Shown: positions 38,919 to 45,606 of the stretch, in pieces
Layout: the number at the start of each line of letters is the position of its first letter
Position numbering within the stretch: the stretch's first letter is position 1
From: Eggerthella sp. CAG:368
GTDB taxonomy: Bacteria; Actinomycetota; Coriobacteriia; Coriobacteriales; Eggerthellaceae
Direction of reading: 5' to 3'
DNA: 46,106 nt
Assembly: GCA_000434775.1 (NCBI GenBank)
Contig: FR895492.1
Span: forward strand, 129,520 to 175,625
Program-made: the position numbers and the translations under genes
The notes under the pieces: generated by a model
The model's database searches: none
What the model was told of the DNA's origin: nothing
What the model saw: the letters and a program-made list of their open reading frames with translations, nothing else

Positions 38919-40034
38919 TTACTTGTGACCATCGGCACAACTCACTCGTTCAATAAGGTCTCCCACATCAGGCAGATCATAATGCTTATACGTAATGGCA
39001 TCGGTGGTATGCCCTAACAACTTAGCTATGTCTTCCAAATCTACGCCCTTGGTTCTCATATTAGTGGTGTAGCTATTCCTCAAATTTTTCAAGGGAATAA
39101 ACGGGTATTCTTTATCCAAAAACCAACGCTTATACTCACGCTTAACCTCCTCGGGATTTCTTGGCTGTCCAAGCCCGTTATCACACATCCACGCTAAACC
39201 ATCTTCTTGTGCTTGGCTTGCGAGTTCTAATATTCGATTTGTCCACGGCGGCGCAATAATAGCCCAACGCGATTCAATTCCCGCCGAATCTTCTGTTTTA
39301 AGCTTGTCCCTAACGCTTATCTTGCGGTTAACAATCTGCACAGTGGTATCAATGAGCAAAGCGGCGTATATATCGCCTTTATGCTCGATTGCGCTAATCT
39401 TTTCAGGCTTTAACCCAAACGCTTCAGAGACACGGCAGCCACCAAACGCAGCAGCCAAAAACACCGCTTCCCACACTTCCCCACGCGCGGCTTCTGCGAT
39501 TTTGCCAAGCGTAGCATCATCTCCCGTTGTCTTGTTGACGTTAATCACTCGCGTTTCTTTGCCTGGCAATCTGTAACGCCGCTGCATAATGTTTTCGCTC
39601 ACATAATCCATAGCATGAGCGCGTCCGAGCATTGCCGAGAAAGCAGTTTTAGCATGCCTAGCCGCACCATAGCTCATGGAATCAAGCCAAGCCTGAACTT
39701 CTTTACCTGTTATTTCATTTAATAGATGCTTACCGAACACGGGCTCAATTTTACTTCTGTAGATATTTCTATAGCCTGCAACAGTCGAAGGCGCTAAATG
39801 TTGTTCGATCTCTGGCAGGTAATACTTAACCCAGAAGAATGATACTGTCATTTGAGCGTCTGCTTGCTCAATATCGGCATGGATACGATCGAGTTCTAAT
39901 CGAGCATCCTTTTTGGTGCCGTGTATGGTTTTAGTGCCATAAAGACGTTTTCCCGTTTTAGCATCGTAGCCTTTAGGCCAGCGGATGCGCCAAGCATCGC
40001 CGCGCTTGCCAATGCTTCCCCATTCGCTTCTCAT
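38919..40034 (-). CDS. int: Tyrosine-type site-specific integrase
   Basis: 371 aa. N-terminal arm-binding-like region (WRIRWPKGYDAKTGKR), a SAM-like core-binding domain and a catalytic domain with R (GCRVSEAFGL), LRNSY, LGH and the nucleophile Y (ITYKHYD). SD AAGGTAAGGTGA is upstream. Confidence 0.92.
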   Translation of the reverse strand: MRSEWGSIGKRGDAWRIRWPKGYDAKTGKRLYGTKTIHGTKKDARLELDRIHADIEQADAQMTVSFFWVKYYLPEIEQHLAPSTVAGYRNIYRSKIEPVFGKHLLNEITGKEVQAWLDSMSYGAARHAKTAFSAMLGRAHAMDYVSENIMQRRYRLPGKETRVINVNKTTGDDATLGKIAEAARGEVWEAVFLAAAFGGCRVSEAFGLKPEKISAIEHKGDIYAALLIDTTVQIVNRKISVRDKLKTEDSAGIESRWAIIAPPWTNRILELASQAQEDGLAWMCDNGLGQPRNPEEVKREYKRWFLDKEYPFIPLKNLRNSYTTNMRTKGVDLEDIAKLLGHTTDAITYKHYDLPDVGDLIERVSCADGHK

Positions 40035-40282: not shown

Positions 40283-40699
40283 TTATTTATTTGAGGCTGA
40301 ATCTCTTGGCGAAAACGCTGGAATACTAAAAGATTCATATACTCCACTTGCGGTAGCTATTTTTATATAGGTACGCGCAATGTCTATCACTTTAAGTGCG
40401 CCTTCGTCTTTTAAGTACTCGTCCTTTTGGTCTTCTGTGGCATCGTCAAGGAAAATGAATATTGTTCTCGATTTGAAATGAATATCATAAGTTGGAGCAC
40501 CATTACTATCTACATCCAATACAAAATCGAGTACGATGTCGCCTTTGTCGTTTCTTTGTGGAAGAAACTTATAGTTCACAATTAGTTCGTGGCGTTTTTC
40601 TTCTTTGTTTTTCGCTTCAATATTGGACGCAAACGAAAACTCAAGAACCTTGCTATCGTCCATGTATACTGACAAGGGGGCAATCTTTTCAAAACTCAT
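40283..40699 (-). CDS. SecB-like chaperone (candidate TAC chaperone)
   Basis: 138 aa. It starts 2 nt after the MqsA-like stop, with GGGAGA as SD. By-eye similarity to SecB blocks: VLEFSFASNIEA versus SecB KDISFEAPNAP. Also ALKVIDIARTYIKIATASGVYESFSIPAF versus SecB [29 protein letters not shown] and Mtb Rv1957 YPYIREYVYDLTGRLALPPLTL. Confidence 0.6.
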   Translation of the reverse strand: MSFEKIAPLSVYMDDSKVLEFSFASNIEAKNKEEKRHELIVNYKFLPQRNDKGDIVLDFVLDVDSNGAPTYDIHFKSRTIFIFLDDATEDQKDEYLKDEGALKVIDIARTYIKIATASGVYESFSIPAFSPRDSASNK

Positions 40700-40701
40700 A
40701 A

Positions 40702-41193
40702 TTACATCTCCCTTGCTTCAAAATCATACGAAGCTTGTTCTTTTTGCGCCTTAGGAAATGGTAAAATAATGCAGTCCCCTCTATCTGCCATAATGCCAAC
40801 CTGCTTTATGCTTTCCATAAAGATATTGTCATGCTCTTTATAGATTCTCATGAGGTTATCTACAGGCTTTGTTTGTAATACTTTTCCGCTTTCCCAACGC
40901 GAAACAGTAGGGTCAGCAACACCTAGAACGCGCTGAAATTCTTTCTGTGTCAACCCATGACGCTTTCTTAGTTCCTTTATCCCTGTTGGAGATAAAAGCC
41001 CCACAGCTTTTGAGTACTGGTCAATAATTTGTTGGTCGTATTTCTTTCCCTCGGCAGCATCAAATACAATTTCGTCGCACTTTTCGCACTGGTAATAATT
41101 AATTCCACAAATAGTTAATTCTTCGCCGCGGAATACCTCAGTAAACGGCGCTGATGTTAAATGCATCTCTCCACCACATTCTAAGCAGCGCAT
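40702..41193 (-). CDS. MqsA-family antitoxin (Zn-ribbon + XRE HTH) with a C-terminal extension of about 31 aa
   Basis: 163 aa. MRCLECGGEM...FRGEEL...YYQCEKCDE matches the MqsA N-terminal CxxC...CxxC domain, and LRKRHGLTQKEFQRVLGVADPTVSRWESG matches the HTH. The tail VGIMADRGDCIILPFPKAQKEQASYDFEAREM extends past the end of E. coli MqsA. SD AAGGAG lies 6 nt upstream. Confidence 0.85.
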   Translation of the reverse strand: MRCLECGGEMHLTSAPFTEVFRGEELTICGINYYQCEKCDEIVFDAAEGKKYDQQIIDQYSKAVGLLSPTGIKELRKRHGLTQKEFQRVLGVADPTVSRWESGKVLQTKPVDNLMRIYKEHDNIFMESIKQVGIMADRGDCIILPFPKAQKEQASYDFEAREM

Positions 41194-41203
41194 AATAAAC
41201 TCC

Positions 41204-41527
41204 TTAATATGTATAGCCGTCCTCTTTTAAAGACCAAATCTCTAAAGAGGCTTTTCCGTTCTCTTCAATAAAAAACTTTACATACCATTCTTCGCCGTAA
41301 CAAATAACATGACGGTAAATATCAGCGAAAACTCCTGGAATATTTTCTAGCTTGTCGGTCTTGTAATAGTTCTCTGGGCGAATCGCAGCAAATACGTCTT
41401 CTATTGTCTCGTCTACAATGTACCCATGGTTTTGTAGATTGTTCCTAAGCCTCTTTGTTGCTCGATAGTTTGCTTCTTTGACGAGATTTTGCGCAACTTC
41501 AAGGTCGTAATAAGGCTCTCTTTCCAT
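41204..41527 (-). CDS. MqsR-family type II toxin (mRNA interferase)
   Basis: It aligns by eye along E. coli MqsR: YDLEVAQNLVKEANYRATK versus RLSQVKKLVNAGQVRTTR; ENYYKT versus SDFYKS; ADIYRH versus QDVYRP; WYVKF versus VYLKI; SLKED versus SFKEK. ATG 41527 is preferred (GGGGAG upstream). The ORF-track start 41533 is a TTG. Confidence 0.8.
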   Translation of the reverse strand: MEREPYYDLEVAQNLVKEANYRATKRLRNNLQNHGYIVDETIEDVFAAIRPENYYKTDKLENIPGVFADIYRHVICYGEEWYVKFFIEENGKASLEIWSLKEDGYTY

Positions 41528-41566
41528 GCGCAAACGCTCCCCTTTCTCCCATAATTTAGCACCATG

Positions 41567-41806
41567 CTAAATTAAGCTCAATAGAACATCTGTTTTTGCA
41601 CATATGGGTTCTAGTTCAAGTTCACCCTCGGAAACAATGTTTCTTAAATGCTTGCTTACAACTGTTCGACCTACATCAAAAAGCACAGCAATTTCTTCTT
41701 GCGTAAGCCAAAAGGTCTCATTCATATAGCGAACCTCGACAGGGACGTTTGTTTCTCCTGACTGATAAAGAATTATTTCAGCCTTAATCGGTTCGTTATT
41801 ATCCAT
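41567..41806 (-). pseudogene. N-terminal fragment (79 aa) of a RhuM-family protein
   Basis: IILYQSGETNVPVEVRYMNETFWLTQEEIAVLFDVGRTVVSKHLRNIVSEGEL matches the N-terminus typical of RhuM-family proteins, which are about 330 aa. The frame stops after about 79 aa, only 33 nt before the MqsR-like gene. Confidence 0.55.
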
Positions 41807-41978
41807 TTTGTTTCTCCATGTCCTCCCGAATAAGCCTCTTAATGTAGCCCGCTTTATTGGGTTGCGCGTCTAAATGAGCCAACAGATCGGCTTCACGCGG
41901 GGAAAACCTCACAACACGCTGAACAAGCTTTTCTTTGTGGTACTTCTTAGATGCTCTCTTTTGAGCTTCGGTAACCAT
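41799..41978 (-). CDS. Small ribbon-helix-helix (Arc/CopG-like) protein, 59 aa
   Basis: It is below the ORF-track cutoff. My translation is MVTEAQKRASKKYHKEKLVQRVVRFSPREADLLAHLDAQPNKAGYIKRLIREDMEKQNG. SD GAAGGAG lies 7 nt upstream of ATG 41978. Its stop overlaps the next ATG (AATGGATAA). Confidence 0.65.
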   Translation of the reverse strand: MVTEAQKRASKKYHKEKLVQRVVRFSPREADLLAHLDAQPNKAGYIKRLIREDMEKQNG

Positions 41979-42063
41979 TGCTATACTCCTTCATATGGAG
42001 GCGGCTTTAAGCTTCTTTCGGGAGAGCCTTGTCGGCTCTCCCTTGTTGCTCACTTCTTGCGAT

Positions 42064-42092
42064 TAAGAAGCTTGCACTTTATGGATACAGTG
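42064..42092 (-). promoter_or_regulatory. Near-consensus sigma-70 promoter with an embedded 18-bp perfect palindrome (operator candidate)
   Basis: The minus strand reads TTGACG (42092-42087), a 17-nt spacer, then TATAAT (42069-42064). TATAGTGTATACACTATA (42066-42083) is a perfect palindrome covering most of the spacer and 4 nt of the -10. The promoter drives the leader, RHH, RhuM fragment and MqsRA-SecB-like operon. Confidence 0.6.
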
Positions 42093-42283
42093 AGGGCGAG
42101 TCGCCATATCCGAATTGTGAAACTCATTGCCGCCTCCTTTCTTTTCTTTAACTTACAGTTATTATTATAGTGTATACACTATATACCGTCAAGCAAATAA
42201 TAAAAGAAATTCAGCGTTTATCAGGTGTTTTACCCAGCCTTGGTATGTATTGGTAAAGATTCGGAGCTATCTTTTTCGATTTA

Positions 42284-43117
42284 TTAATCCTGAAAGACAA
42301 TCAACAAACTCCAATAGTTAGCACGTCCTCCAAATGCATATTTCTTCTTTACATAACCGGAATAAATTATCTTTTTACCAACACAATTAGCAAGATTCTT
42401 ATATCTTGAACTTCTCGCATTAATATCAAAGAGAATTTCATCTTTTGCTTTTATAAGAACATGCGGTTTCTGTGTTGGTTTATGATCTACTGAAAAACTA
42501 ACCGTTAAACAAAGAGGAACTTCGTTCTTTTCCTCTTTGTCCGCTAAAAAACCCTCCTCGTATATATTGGCAATAAAAAAGTTGAAATTTGCTGGAAGAT
42601 CTATAGAAACAGATTCCCTAACTAGATTCTTTTCTCTCTCTTCGTCTCTTTGTCTAGATAACTCTTTCCCTTTTTCGTTTTCCAAAATAAAAAGTTCTAC
42701 ATAATTTGTCAGCGTTAGCTCTGTTCCGGCTTTCGGGAAAACTACCGCAAATGGAGCATAATCACCAACATCGTACCCTGATCTTTCGAGATAACCATTG
42801 CTTAAAATGCCGACCATTACCCCGCTATTGGACACTACAGCATAATCTCCTTCCTGAAAATTCCAATCAGTTATACGCTTTTTCCAATGCCTTGGAAGAT
42901 GGGCTTGCGATGGGTGTACCACCCTAAGAAGAACGGTGTCTCCATTTATCCCTATAAGTATCCACCTAAAGTAAGCACAGGCAGAAACACGCCAAGCATC
43001 AGCAACGTAAGCAGAAGGAGAGTAATATTCAGACCCTCTAGAGTTTTTGCCTTTTCCTTCGGAAGTGAAACTCCAAGATCTTTCTCCTCTTTTTTCTATA
43101 ACGGTGAACTCTTTCAC
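42284..43117 (-). CDS. Hypothetical protein, 277 aa, no recognisable domain; co-transcribed with the prophage repressor
   Basis: Long clean ORF. GTG 43117 lies 20 nt after the repressor stop on the same strand, with no intervening hairpin. I could not match any motif. By eye it is more AT-rich than its neighbours. Confidence 0.75.
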   Translation of the reverse strand: MKEFTVIEKRGERSWSFTSEGKGKNSRGSEYYSPSAYVADAWRVSACAYFRWILIGINGDTVLLRVVHPSQAHLPRHWKKRITDWNFQEGDYAVVSNSGVMVGILSNGYLERSGYDVGDYAPFAVVFPKAGTELTLTNYVELFILENEKGKELSRQRDEEREKNLVRESVSIDLPANFNFFIANIYEEGFLADKEEKNEVPLCLTVSFSVDHKPTQKPHVLIKAKDEILFDINARSSRYKNLANCVGKKIIYSGYVKKKYAFGGRANYWSLLIVFQD

Positions 43118-43137
43118 TAATCAACCTATCTCGTTTA

Positions 43138-43767
43138 CTAAAATTCCCAGTCGAACGGCAAAACGTAATAGACAACTCTACCTATAATGGTTATCTGCTC
43201 TGTTCCTTCTTCGTTATAGTTAAAAGTCTTTGTAGTGTATGTCGGATCATCAGAATCTGGTATTAGCTGGAATCCATTAGCAAGCTGCTTTACCCTCTTA
43301 ATGGTTGCATCGTAGCCATTAACACACACCGCATAGGGTTCATTGTCGTGGTCTATTTCTTTACAGGGATCAACCAGCGCAAAGCAGCCATTAGGAAGTA
43401 CACGATTCATACTCTCCCCCTCTACCTTTAACAGGAAGGCATCGGGATATTTTTCGTGTACCTTAGTTGGCACTGGTTGAGTTCCTTCAATATCAAGCAT
43501 TTCTATTGGCGTTCCAGCTGCAATGGATCCGTATAGAGGAACATCAACCATGGCACTATTAGGCAGTGACGAATTTTCCATTCCTAGCAAGTAAGATATA
43601 GTCACTCCAAGTGTCGCGCTCAGCTTAATTAAGACACTAGATTTTATGTCTCGAGCGCCAGCCTCATACCTTTGTATTGTTTGCTGGGTTGTCCCCATTT
43701 TGTCGGCAAGGTCTTGCTGAGACCATCCTTTTGCTATGCGAGCTTCCGCAATTTTATATCCAGCCAT
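43138..43767 (-). CDS. CI/LexA-like prophage repressor (XRE HTH + S24 autopeptidase)
   Basis: 209 aa. HTH (WSQQDLADKMGTTQQTIQRYEAG), an Ala-Gly cleavage region (GSIAAGTP) and a Ser/Lys dyad (VEGESMNRV, ATIKRV). Confidence 0.9.
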   Translation of the reverse strand: MAGYKIAEARIAKGWSQQDLADKMGTTQQTIQRYEAGARDIKSSVLIKLSATLGVTISYLLGMENSSLPNSAMVDVPLYGSIAAGTPIEMLDIEGTQPVPTKVHEKYPDAFLLKVEGESMNRVLPNGCFALVDPCKEIDHDNEPYAVCVNGYDATIKRVKQLANGFQLIPDSDDPTYTTKTFNYNEEGTEQITIIGRVVYYVLPFDWEF

Positions 43768-43789
43768 TTTTATATCCTTCGGATGTTAT

Positions 43790-43882
43790 ACACCGATATA
43801 GTGTTATTTTTTCACACCAAAACGGTTGCATGCAACACCAGAGGGGTGTATATTTATCACATCACAAACACCGTTTCGGTGT
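43790..43882. promoter_or_regulatory. Immunity-switch operator array and divergent promoters
   Basis: There are four 15-bp sites of form ACACC-N5-GGTGT. They are 43790-43804 (ACACCGATATAGTGT), 43814-43828 (ACACCAAAACGGTTG), 43835-43849 (ACACCAGAGGGGTGT) and 43868-43882 (ACACCGTTTCGGTGT). A 14-bp palindrome GGTTGCATGCAACC lies at 43824-43837. The rightward promoter is TTGCAT (43826-31), a 17-nt spacer and TATATT (43849-54). Confidence 0.6.
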
Positions 43883-43894
43883 TAGGAGGTGAAA

Positions 43895-44119
43895 ATGAGA
43901 GGAAATATGAAAGCAGAAAGAGCGCGCTTAAACCTGTCGCTCGAAGATGTAGCTAATGCCGTTGGAGTTAACAAGAACTCTGTGGCTCGATGGGAGAGCG
44001 GAGAAGTCGAACCTGTCTCCGAGAATCTCGAAAAACTAGCAGAACTGTACGGGTGCTCTGTGGAGTACTTGCTTGAACAAACACCAGATCGCCACGGGAA
44101 AGCGATTGCAAAAGTTTAA
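43895..44119 (+). CDS. Cro/CI-family HTH protein (Cro-like)
   Basis: MRGNMKAERARLNLSLEDVANAVGVNKNSVARWESGEVEP. AGGAGG lies 5 nt upstream of ATG 43895. The ORF-track start 43889 is a GTG inside the SD. Confidence 0.85.
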   Translation: MRGNMKAERARLNLSLEDVANAVGVNKNSVARWESGEVEPVSENLEKLAELYGCSVEYLLEQTPDRHGKAIAKV

Positions 44120-45147: not shown

Positions 45148-45606
45148 TTAACCCTCCAACCACTTACTACGATGCTTCCTTATTTCAAGAATAACATCGG
45201 GCTGAATTTGGAAGTCTATCCATTCAAAAACCCCCGTAAAAGGGGGCATACCAAAAATACCAAGCTCGCACAGAGTAAGAGCATCGTGATCATGAGCACT
45301 TAGATTAACGGAACCCTCATTTAAGGCTTCAATAACAAGCCCACGTTGGCGATTGGTTAGTGAAGCAAAACAGCGTTCGAGATTTTTTATTTTTTGGCGC
45401 TTTGTCGCTGGGGTTTGTCGGCTATGCCCAACACCACGACGGTATCCACAACTATAACCAAGAACACCCATAGCTGTACCGAAAGCTACACAAGCAAAGG
45501 TATCAATGTCAGGGACAACGTAAGACAGAACAAAAGAGATAAGCCAAGACACAAGGGAGGAAATAACAGCAGAAAAAACAGTGCCTAAAACATCGAAGTT
45601 TTGCAT
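45148..45606 (-). CDS. 2-TM membrane protein; C-terminal domain tentatively SieB-like (superinfection exclusion)
   Basis: 152 aa. TM1 is VLGTVFSAVISSLVSWLISFVLSYVV and TM2 is FACVAFGTAMGVLGYSCGY. The soluble tail LERCFASLTNRQRGLVIEALNEGSVNL...ALTLCELGIF...IQPDVILEIRKH follows the pattern I recall for SieB-family proteins. SD AGGAG lies 4 nt upstream. It is oriented against the early operon. Confidence 0.7.
   Translation of the reverse strand: MQNFDVLGTVFSAVISSLVSWLISFVLSYVVPDIDTFACVAFGTAMGVLGYSCGYRRGVGHSRQTPATKRQKIKNLERCFASLTNRQRGLVIEALNEGSVNLSAHDHDALTLCELGIFGMPPFTGVFEWIDFQIQPDVILEIRKHRSKWLEG

Follow-up and report, generated by a model that had tools for sequence, protein, structure and literature searches.

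What does a gene contribute when it sits directly behind the repressor of a prophage and matches no known protein family? This question is raised by a locus of Eggerthella sp. CAG:368, a member of the Eggerthellaceae (a Coriobacteriia family of the gut), found in a 46,106-nt stretch of contig FR895492.1 (hereafter the window, meaning the whole stretch of DNA analyzed). We examined one open reading frame (ORF) of the window, referred to as X (42284..43117, minus strand), whose product is identical to CDD67538.1, annotated as 'unknown [Eggerthella sp. CAG:368]'. A protein identical to X is present on 7 contigs read from several samples. As described below, X is joined to the repressor gene, has relatives in the same position in other prophages and may protect the lysogen from other phages.

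X lies in the repressor transcription unit

X begins with a GTG codon located 20 nt past the TAG (43140-43138) of a CI/LexA-type repressor gene on the same strand. An in-frame TGA (43123-43121) stands two codons 5' of this GTG, so the ORF cannot start earlier, and a weak Shine-Dalgarno (SD)-like AGGT (43127-43124) is found 6 nt 5' of the start. A pattern scan of the minus strand detected no terminator-like site between the repressor and X or in the 3' end of the repressor gene. No terminator or RNA element was detected 3' of X (fold z-score of -0.3, no match in Rfam). With its 20-nt gap and terminator-free junction, X is physically part of the repressor transcription unit. The initial annotation, made from the letters and their translations, had described the same 277-aa ORF and junction, had seen no hairpin or terminator in between and had placed X in the repressor operon; our coordinates, the shared strand and the minus-strand scan agree with it throughout. 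Moreover, a strong promoter-like site about 90 nt 3' of the X stop codon leaves X as the last gene served by the repressor promoter alone, and its product is presumably made together with the repressor in the lysogen.

X had been called an orphan, a description that did not hold. An exhaustive HMMER scan of 1.84 billion representatives returned 14 matches at E<=1e-3, of which 13 were distant homologue clusters (24-34% identity, E from 1e-18 to 3e-4), most of them full length, while word-indexed protein searches yielded P0001, P0005 and P0015 as the only family members. P0001, from a second prophage (locus L001), is 97% identical to window X, and the two genes differ at 10 synonymous and 8 non-synonymous codons. 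No relative was found among GenBank phages by tblastn or blastn. By these comparisons, X is a real, conserved and selected gene and belongs to a small undescribed protein family, as the initial annotation had supposed, with no match in Pfam, NCBIfam, PHROGs, PADLOC or PDB.

The surroundings of the homologues gave the most consistent signal. Among the 10 family loci with readable upstream sequence, nine place the X start within -1 to +29 nt of the stop of a same-strand repressor, which answers a check proposed in the initial annotation, namely, whether homologues recur beside CI-like repressors. The partner repressors carry a helix-turn-helix (HTH) domain, alone or with an S24 domain, and are divergent from a cro-like gene, at X identities of 24-34%. 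HTH+S24 repressors precede X in the window (also L003; gap of 20 nt), in L001 (P0001, a different HTH, 20 nt), L008 (P0002, 15 nt), L009 (P0003, 29 nt), L016-18 (P0008, 1-nt overlap) and L020 (P0013, 1-nt overlap), and repressors with an HTH only are found in L007 (P0005, 7 nt) and L022 (P0010, 3 nt). The repressor of L019 (P0007, gap of about 12 nt) matches S24 in Pfam and can be aligned in its N-terminal part with the HTH regions of the other repressors. Only the P0004 cluster departs from this pattern; it has 28 members, more than any other cluster, is chromosomal and stands alone with no repressor upstream. In loci L010-L012, it is flanked by bioY on one side and by an SDR-type gene and its terminator on the other, and the 600 nt upstream are non-coding. 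The P0004 loci also contain uncharacterized 56-aa and 128-aa genes after X, and P0009 is an apparent frameshifted P0004 copy.

On the 3' side, the loci were far more diverse. A tyrosine or serine integrase gene directly follows X in L009, L016, L020, L021 and L022, with the X stop overlapping the integrase start in L009 and L020. In other loci, variable cargo comes before the integrase, consisting of MqsRA in the window, a DprA-like and phosphoribosyltransferase (PRTase)-like pair in L001, an SDH-type protease with Abi_2 in L007 and SocA/Panacea in L019. An Abi_2-like gene is also next after X in L008, where the contig ends before any integrase. Because these genes are unrelated to one another, a conserved downstream partner of X is ruled out. 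X always comes first behind the repressor, with any further cargo placed on its far side and none in between.

Exchange of X between prophages

Comparison of the window with L001 revealed that the S24 half of the repressor gene, X and the next promoter lie in a stretch of about 98% identity at the DNA level. The HTH domains and operators of the two prophages are unrelated, whereas their S24 domains are nearly identical (one substitution). The mosaic joint falls within the repressor gene, at the HTH-S24 linker (window 43138-43767 versus L001:9324-9980), and reads as a natural immunity swap by domain exchange. Since the same X stands behind repressors with unrelated HTH domains and operators, it appears indifferent to immunity specificity. 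X also occurs with S24-less repressors (L007 and L022).

The reverse situation was found in 79 IMG/VR phages whose repressors are related (up to 77% amino acid identity), none of which encodes an X relative at hmmsearch E<=10. Their repressor-to-integrase slot is filled by lipoproteins, small membrane proteins, a DUF2806 protein or a second uncharacterized family, or is empty in some, with the integrase directly after the repressor. In L104, for example, the cro-to-repressor stretch is 69% identical to the window at the DNA level, and this similarity breaks off precisely at the repressor stop (43138). Composition is consistent with exchange and suggests a foreign origin: in 11 of 12 cases, X exceeds the remaining locus in AT content, with a difference that reaches 16 points and is 12-16 points in four loci. 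Taken together, these comparisons show X to be exchangeable accessory cargo in the repressor-to-integrase slot of Eggerthellaceae prophages.

Several other occupants of this slot were recorded along the way. At L001:11228-12800, the MqsRA genes are replaced by genes for a DprA/SLOG-like protein (DNA_processg_A, 7.9e-55) and a 226-aa protein with a phosphoribosyltransferase-like VILVDDVLLMGTH motif, a pair that may be a defence-type module. The second slot family (229-246 aa) was found at L116:4663-5352, L118:4438-5127, L127:4517-5254 and L129:4621-5355, with a 402-aa duplicated version at L108:4631-5839. Its members display the motifs PLTxTGKxPKY and YLxDGxxGKA, and the L127 protein starts with MMGLF, like X homologues. 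Homology between X and this family ('Y') was rejected by hhalign (probability of 0.1%), despite a look-alike P-x-x-[KT]-G-x-x-x-K-[PY] motif. Lipoproteins of 165-178 aa directly follow related repressors at L112:4667-5164, L123:4441-4938 and L131:4676-5212, with an LTAC or LGAC lipobox, a weak Shr-like_HID match and no PADLOC match.

Protein architecture and prophage setting

As expected from the initial annotation, which had judged X by eye to be more AT-rich than the repressor gene, the computed GC content of X was 38.0%, lower than that of the repressor gene (43.3%) and of the window (42.4%). The bias is concentrated in the C-terminal half (32.8% GC, with 24.6% GC at third codon positions), compared with 42.1-42.3% for the N-terminal half depending on the cut, and this low GC is restricted to the window lineage rather than family-wide. 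Hydropathy and motif scans also agreed with the earlier claim that X has no transmembrane (TM) segment and no HTH, P-loop, HExxH or nuclease motif, as did the lack of a Pfam match. The maximum 19-residue Kyte-Doolittle mean was 1.2, and neither P-loop, HExxH, PD-(D/E)xK, CxxC nor lipobox was found in the motif scan.

An AlphaFold model built with the 14-sequence family alignment (A2) reached a pLDDT of 83.7 and a pTM of 0.68, while prediction from the X sequence alone was unusable (pLDDT of 36). X had been read as bipartite, with a charged linker leading into a Lys-rich part. The two parts and the Lys bias stood (12 of 107 residues in the C part versus 8 of 150 in the N part), and the linker is predicted to be a 22-residue helix instead (Table 1). 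Family motifs are found in both parts. The N part contains R-[ST]-W, Y-F-Q (YFR in window X), D-T-[IV]-x-[LV]-R, LPxxW, YA[LV]V, G-Y-x-x-G-D and [CF]-A-V-x-R-P-P, and the C part contains K-G-S-K-A-K-P-H-[IV] (HKPTQKPHV in window X) followed by A-R-[SN]-x-x-Y-x-x-L. Conserved positions are aromatic, Gly/Pro and Lys/Arg, the invariant or near-invariant ones being Tyr, Trp, Gly, Pro and Lys, and the alignment holds no conserved Asp/Glu/His/Ser/Cys set suggestive of catalysis. An additional N-terminal segment of about 10-60 residues, starting with M-G-[LFI]-[FLI]-x-x-[LF] and continuing into a variable tail that is basic in longer extensions, is present in 11 of the 12 other full-length homologues and in both truncated ones (P0009 and P0014). 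The exception is P0007, whose likely true start is a GTG giving MWPFKRKSKK. Window X lacks this segment and begins at the conserved core.

Searches for a known family or fold were negative. X matched nothing in Pfam, NCBIfam, PHROGs or PADLOC, the best result (phrog_6185, E=0.04) being treated as noise, and Pfam and PHROGs searches with all 14 family members gave only scattered single matches at E>0.008. PDB searches by X sequence and by family profile returned only ribosomal protein S1 (E=1.3, over 34 residues). Foldseek found nothing at E<=1e-3 for the X model in PDB (best E of 0.11, TM<=0.2), and its best BFVD matches (E of 0.026, TM<=0.35) were to unnamed gut-phage proteins. No housekeeping or virion protein, a match to which would have spoken against the initial annotation, emerged from the profile searches or Foldseek. 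The S1/OB-fold lead obtained a probability of 0.9% by hhalign of the family against the PNPase S1 domain; the modeled C-domain order (b-b-b-a-b-b) is compatible with an OB fold, and Foldseek returned no OB match. HIRAN, suggested by the motif pattern, was rejected, with an hhalign probability of 0.6% against an HLTF HIRAN sequence, no Pfam match in any family member at E<=1 and no HLTF chain among the Foldseek PDB matches. Homology to the S24/HTH partner repressors was rejected as well (0.2% for A2 versus an alignment, A6, of 9 partner repressors). X is thus a predicted soluble two-domain protein without conserved catalytic-type residues or a detectable known fold.

The host-side uvrC located left of the integrase, together with a host Na+/H+ exchanger gene, is 87% and 76-78% identical to uvrC of uncultured gut Eggerthellaceae, which identifies the element as a prophage of a low-GC Coriobacteriia (Actinomycetota) member rather than a lambdoid phage. 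Its repressor and cro-like genes are separated by a switch region of 120 nt. Downstream of X, a perfect 18-bp palindrome (42166-42183, TATAGTGTA|TACACTATA) overlaps the promoter-like site, which appears to mark the start of a separate operon. The two small genes that follow (41567-41978) probably form an autoregulated operon also driving the MqsRA genes, the MqsR/MqsA-like pair being prophage cargo in an actinobacterial host.

Table 1. Features of gene X and of the surrounding prophage region, in window coordinates
Feature	Position	Strand	Remarks
Gene X	42284..43117	-	277 aa, GTG start, TAA stop 42284-42286
X N-terminal domain, aa 1-146	42680..43117	-	Predicted mixed beta/alpha; model pLDDT mostly 80-96
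X long charged alpha-helix, aa 148-169	42611..42676	-	Predicted; DSSP H148-169, 22 residues, pLDDT about 86-88
X C-terminal part, aa 170-277	42287..42610	-	Lys-rich; holds predicted beta-rich C-domain aa 178-277
Repressor-X junction	43118..43137	-	20 nt, weak SD-like AGGT, no hairpin; identical in second prophage L001
CI/LexA-type repressor, first operon gene	43138..43767	-	HTH_3 1.1e-17, Peptidase_S24 5.7e-19, phrog_4 transcriptional repressor 3.5e-41
Switch region palindromes, operator-like	43787..43883		Three to four ACACC-N5-GGTGT-type inverted repeats (I1-I4)
Cro-like HTH gene, divergent	43889..44119	+	HTH_3 5e-14
Strong promoter-like site	42164..42192	-	TTGACG-17-TATAAT, 11/12; conserved in L001
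59-aa protein gene	41799-41978	-	
79-aa protein gene	41567-41806	-	Weak HTH-like matches
MqsR-like toxin	41204-41533	-	PF15723, 1.3e-09
MqsA-like antitoxin	40702-41193	-	PF15731, 1.6e-14
Uncharacterized 138-aa gene, after MqsA	40283-40699	-	
Tyrosine integrase, prophage end	38919..40034	-	Closes repressor-to-integrase cargo slot

Two further ORFs of the element were noted. A 25-codon ORF (MSFTIRIWRLALTVSIKCKLLNRKK; 42050-42127, minus strand), located between the promoter-like site and the 59-aa gene, is preceded by a strong AAAGGAGG Shine-Dalgarno sequence and followed on its 3' side by a GC-rich hairpin (42020-42042, GGGAGAGCC-N5-GGCTCTCCC). The segment holding both is missing from the otherwise near-identical L001, and the hydrophobic-then-basic peptide could be type I toxin-like or a leader peptide. 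A 152-aa ORF (45148-45606, minus strand) with a hydrophobic N-terminal region lies antisense to early lytic genes, is present in L003-L005 and not in L001 or L002, and is a candidate moron.

Possible functions of X

The known occupants of the slot (Sie2009-type proteins, Ltp, rexAB and BstA, compared below) and the toxin-antitoxin (TA)- or abortive infection (Abi)-type neighbors make protection of the lysogen the most likely function of X. A role in exclusion or abortive infection is accordingly our best inference, although one held tentatively. The initial annotation had proposed a single-gene immunity or exclusion factor, a reading that our analysis supports in part. Under this proposal, X would be co-produced with the repressor in the lysogen from the repressor promoter and would act stoichiometrically, as a binder and not as an enzyme, against superinfecting phages, either excluding them at or after DNA entry or aborting the infection. 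Protection would be independent of the operator specificity of the repressor. The N-terminal M-G peptide of the homologues might form a short membrane- or partner-docking helix, in which case window X would be untethered. A more specific version, possible yet doubtful, has X as the founder of a single-protein, non-enzymatic anti-phage family with a new fold, specific to prophages of gut Coriobacteriia, wired into the repressor operon and, in function, a Gram-positive counterpart of BstA of independent origin.

Several observations weigh against a protective role. The motif scan gave X no nuclease, NTPase or other effector motif, and none of the PADLOC defence models matches it, even though the library recognizes BstA. 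X also lacks a TM segment or lipobox, unlike the characterized Sie and Ltp proteins. The family is small (14 clusters at 50% identity among the 1.84 billion representatives), so its 'enrichment' in the repressor slot rests on about ten loci, and no member was found in IMG/VR, GTDB representative genomes or JGI metagenomes with the patterns tried. Finally, the constant position of X immediately after the repressor could also reflect a function linked to the repressor as such.

This last point underlies the reading of X as an accessory of the lysogeny switch in an ImmA-like position, which, by binding either the repressor or the integrase, would adjust how stable the repressor is or how readily the prophage is induced or integrated. 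Such a role would explain why X invariably comes first, overlapping the repressor stop in L016 and L020 and the integrase start in L009 and L020, why other cargo enters only after it, and why it is retained between the window and L001 while the downstream cargo differs. We nevertheless consider it unlikely, as X is missing from phages whose repressors are 77% identical and whose cro and operator DNA is homologous, and some related phages run straight from repressor to integrase. X is moreover paired with unrelated HTH domains, with S24+ and S24- repressors and with both recombinase classes, and the most populous cluster (P0004, 28 members) has no repressor upstream at all. The protein itself lacks an HExxH motif and resembles neither S24 nor HTH profiles, and the AT-rich composition of its gene suggests a foreign origin.

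Cargo behavior, AT-richness and the logic of lysogen-linked expression would be equally compatible with a lysogenic-conversion gene riding the lysogen-active repressor promoter and conferring a phage-unrelated benefit on the host, such as stress tolerance, host interaction or metabolism-related binding. That X matches no defence model in PADLOC and that its most abundant cluster, P0004, is a chromosomal stand-alone lineage would also be understandable if X were such a gene. We regard this as improbable given that X is predicted to be cytoplasmic, with neither a secretion signal nor an enzyme signature, and that its neighboring cargo is of the TA/Abi type. The characterized occupants of the slot are, in addition, mainly anti-phage (PMC7693887, PMC8585504).

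The pairing of an HTH protein gene with a tightly coupled, sometimes overlapping second gene recalls many type II TA operons, and TA modules (MqsRA, Panacea) do occupy the same slot. X could then be a toxin-like or addiction component that is restrained as long as the repressor is present and that stabilizes the prophage or kills cells that lose or induce it. This appears very unlikely, however, since what precedes X is no dedicated antitoxin gene but a genuine phage repressor gene, complete with operators and a divergent cro, and since X, at 277 aa, is large, shows neither a toxin fold nor a toxin motif and exists in the P0004 lineage without any HTH partner. That X is a chance ORF or a decaying remnant deserves next to no credence, as the GTG start with its weak SD and the missing N-terminal extension of nearly all homologues are outweighed by full-length homologues at 24-34% identity that share motifs in each of the two domains, a confident fold (pLDDT of 83.7) from a shallow 14-sequence alignment, a 97%-identical copy with a synonymous excess (10 synonymous to 8 non-synonymous codons) and an identical protein on 7 contigs from several samples.

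Unannotated genes in repressor operons are common in prophages, and X is set apart by a striking synteny and an unmatched fold. If anti-phage, it would add a family missed by current defence catalogues, from a clade (the Eggerthellaceae) whose phage biology is almost unexplored, and would imply that the solution of gluing a gene to the repressor, as in rexAB and BstA, evolved independently in Actinobacteria. If it tunes the switch, the accessory factors of lysogeny would gain a member of a new kind. In both cases, the repressor-to-integrase slot, which in these phages contains X, the second uncharacterized family, lipoproteins and small membrane proteins, is a rich and easily located source of uncharacterized lysogen-expressed genes. 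A practical limit is that the hosts of X are mostly uncultured.

Comparison with known systems

The closest parallel is BstA, a two-domain Abi protein of about 300 aa characteristically encoded directly downstream of prophage repressors, found in the Salmonella prophage BTP1 and in other Gram-negative prophages (PMC8585504). Like BstA, X is the product of a single gene, is about 300 aa long and consists of two domains that meet near residue 150, and its gene lies directly downstream of a same-strand prophage repressor (20 nt in the window; 9 of 10 informative loci). In both cases, the repressor promoter is presumably shared and the protein expressed in the lysogen, which for X follows from gene layout. 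Both families have some prophage-independent members and occupy a hotspot of mosaic diversity. Their hosts differ, that of X being an actinobacterium. BstA combines abortive infection with a cognate self-immunity (aba) DNA element. Homology was rejected, with an hhalign probability of 0.2% for A2 versus BstA, and the PADLOC BstA model (PDLC02356) recognizes BTP1 BstA (1.9e-124) and not X. The KilA-N-like domain, a BstA feature, has no Pfam match in X or the 14 family members and no relevant Foldseek match. By these comparisons, X is analogous to BstA in layout and not homologous to it.

A second parallel is provided by Gram-positive temperate phages, in which Sie proteins (PMC7693887) and Ltp (PMC3952083) are encoded between repressor and integrase. 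X shares with Sie2009 and Ltp of lactococcal and streptococcal phages this position in the lysogeny module and the behavior of cargo that varies from phage to phage. Sie2009 and Ltp are transcribed in the prophage state, as would be X judging from its operon. Their characteristic activity is to keep heterologous phages from injecting their DNA. In contrast to the 277-aa X, which has no PHROG or Pfam link to either, Ltp is a surface lipoprotein and Sie2009 a small membrane protein whose N-terminus is hydrophobic. Lipoproteins and TM proteins nevertheless fill the same slot in phages with related repressors, as alternatives to X, and the slot lipoproteins of L112, L123 and L131 are positional analogues of Ltp-type exclusion lipoproteins.

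In phage lambda, rexAB are accessory genes co-transcribed with cI in the lysogen that exclude other phages. Their exclusion role has been discussed alongside BstA (PMC8585504). The initial annotation had likened the X slot to that of rexAB, and this stands as a positional analogy and no further, because the host is an actinobacterium of the Eggerthellaceae. Furthermore, rexAB comprises two components, one of them a membrane channel protein (the polytopic RexB), whereas X is a single, predicted soluble protein, the genes after X belong to a separate promoter unit, and X has no PADLOC match (the presence of a Rex model in the library was unchecked).

The anti-repressor metalloproteases ImmA/IrrE are encoded directly after the repressor and before the integrase (immR-immA-int), in tight coupling. 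X resembles ImmA in its position right after the repressor and in this coupling, but has neither an HExxH motif nor a Peptidase_M78 match in Pfam, and most of its partner repressors already possess an S24 self-cleavage domain of their own. Considering these four systems, the most fitting description of X is that of a new family occupying a position of a known kind.

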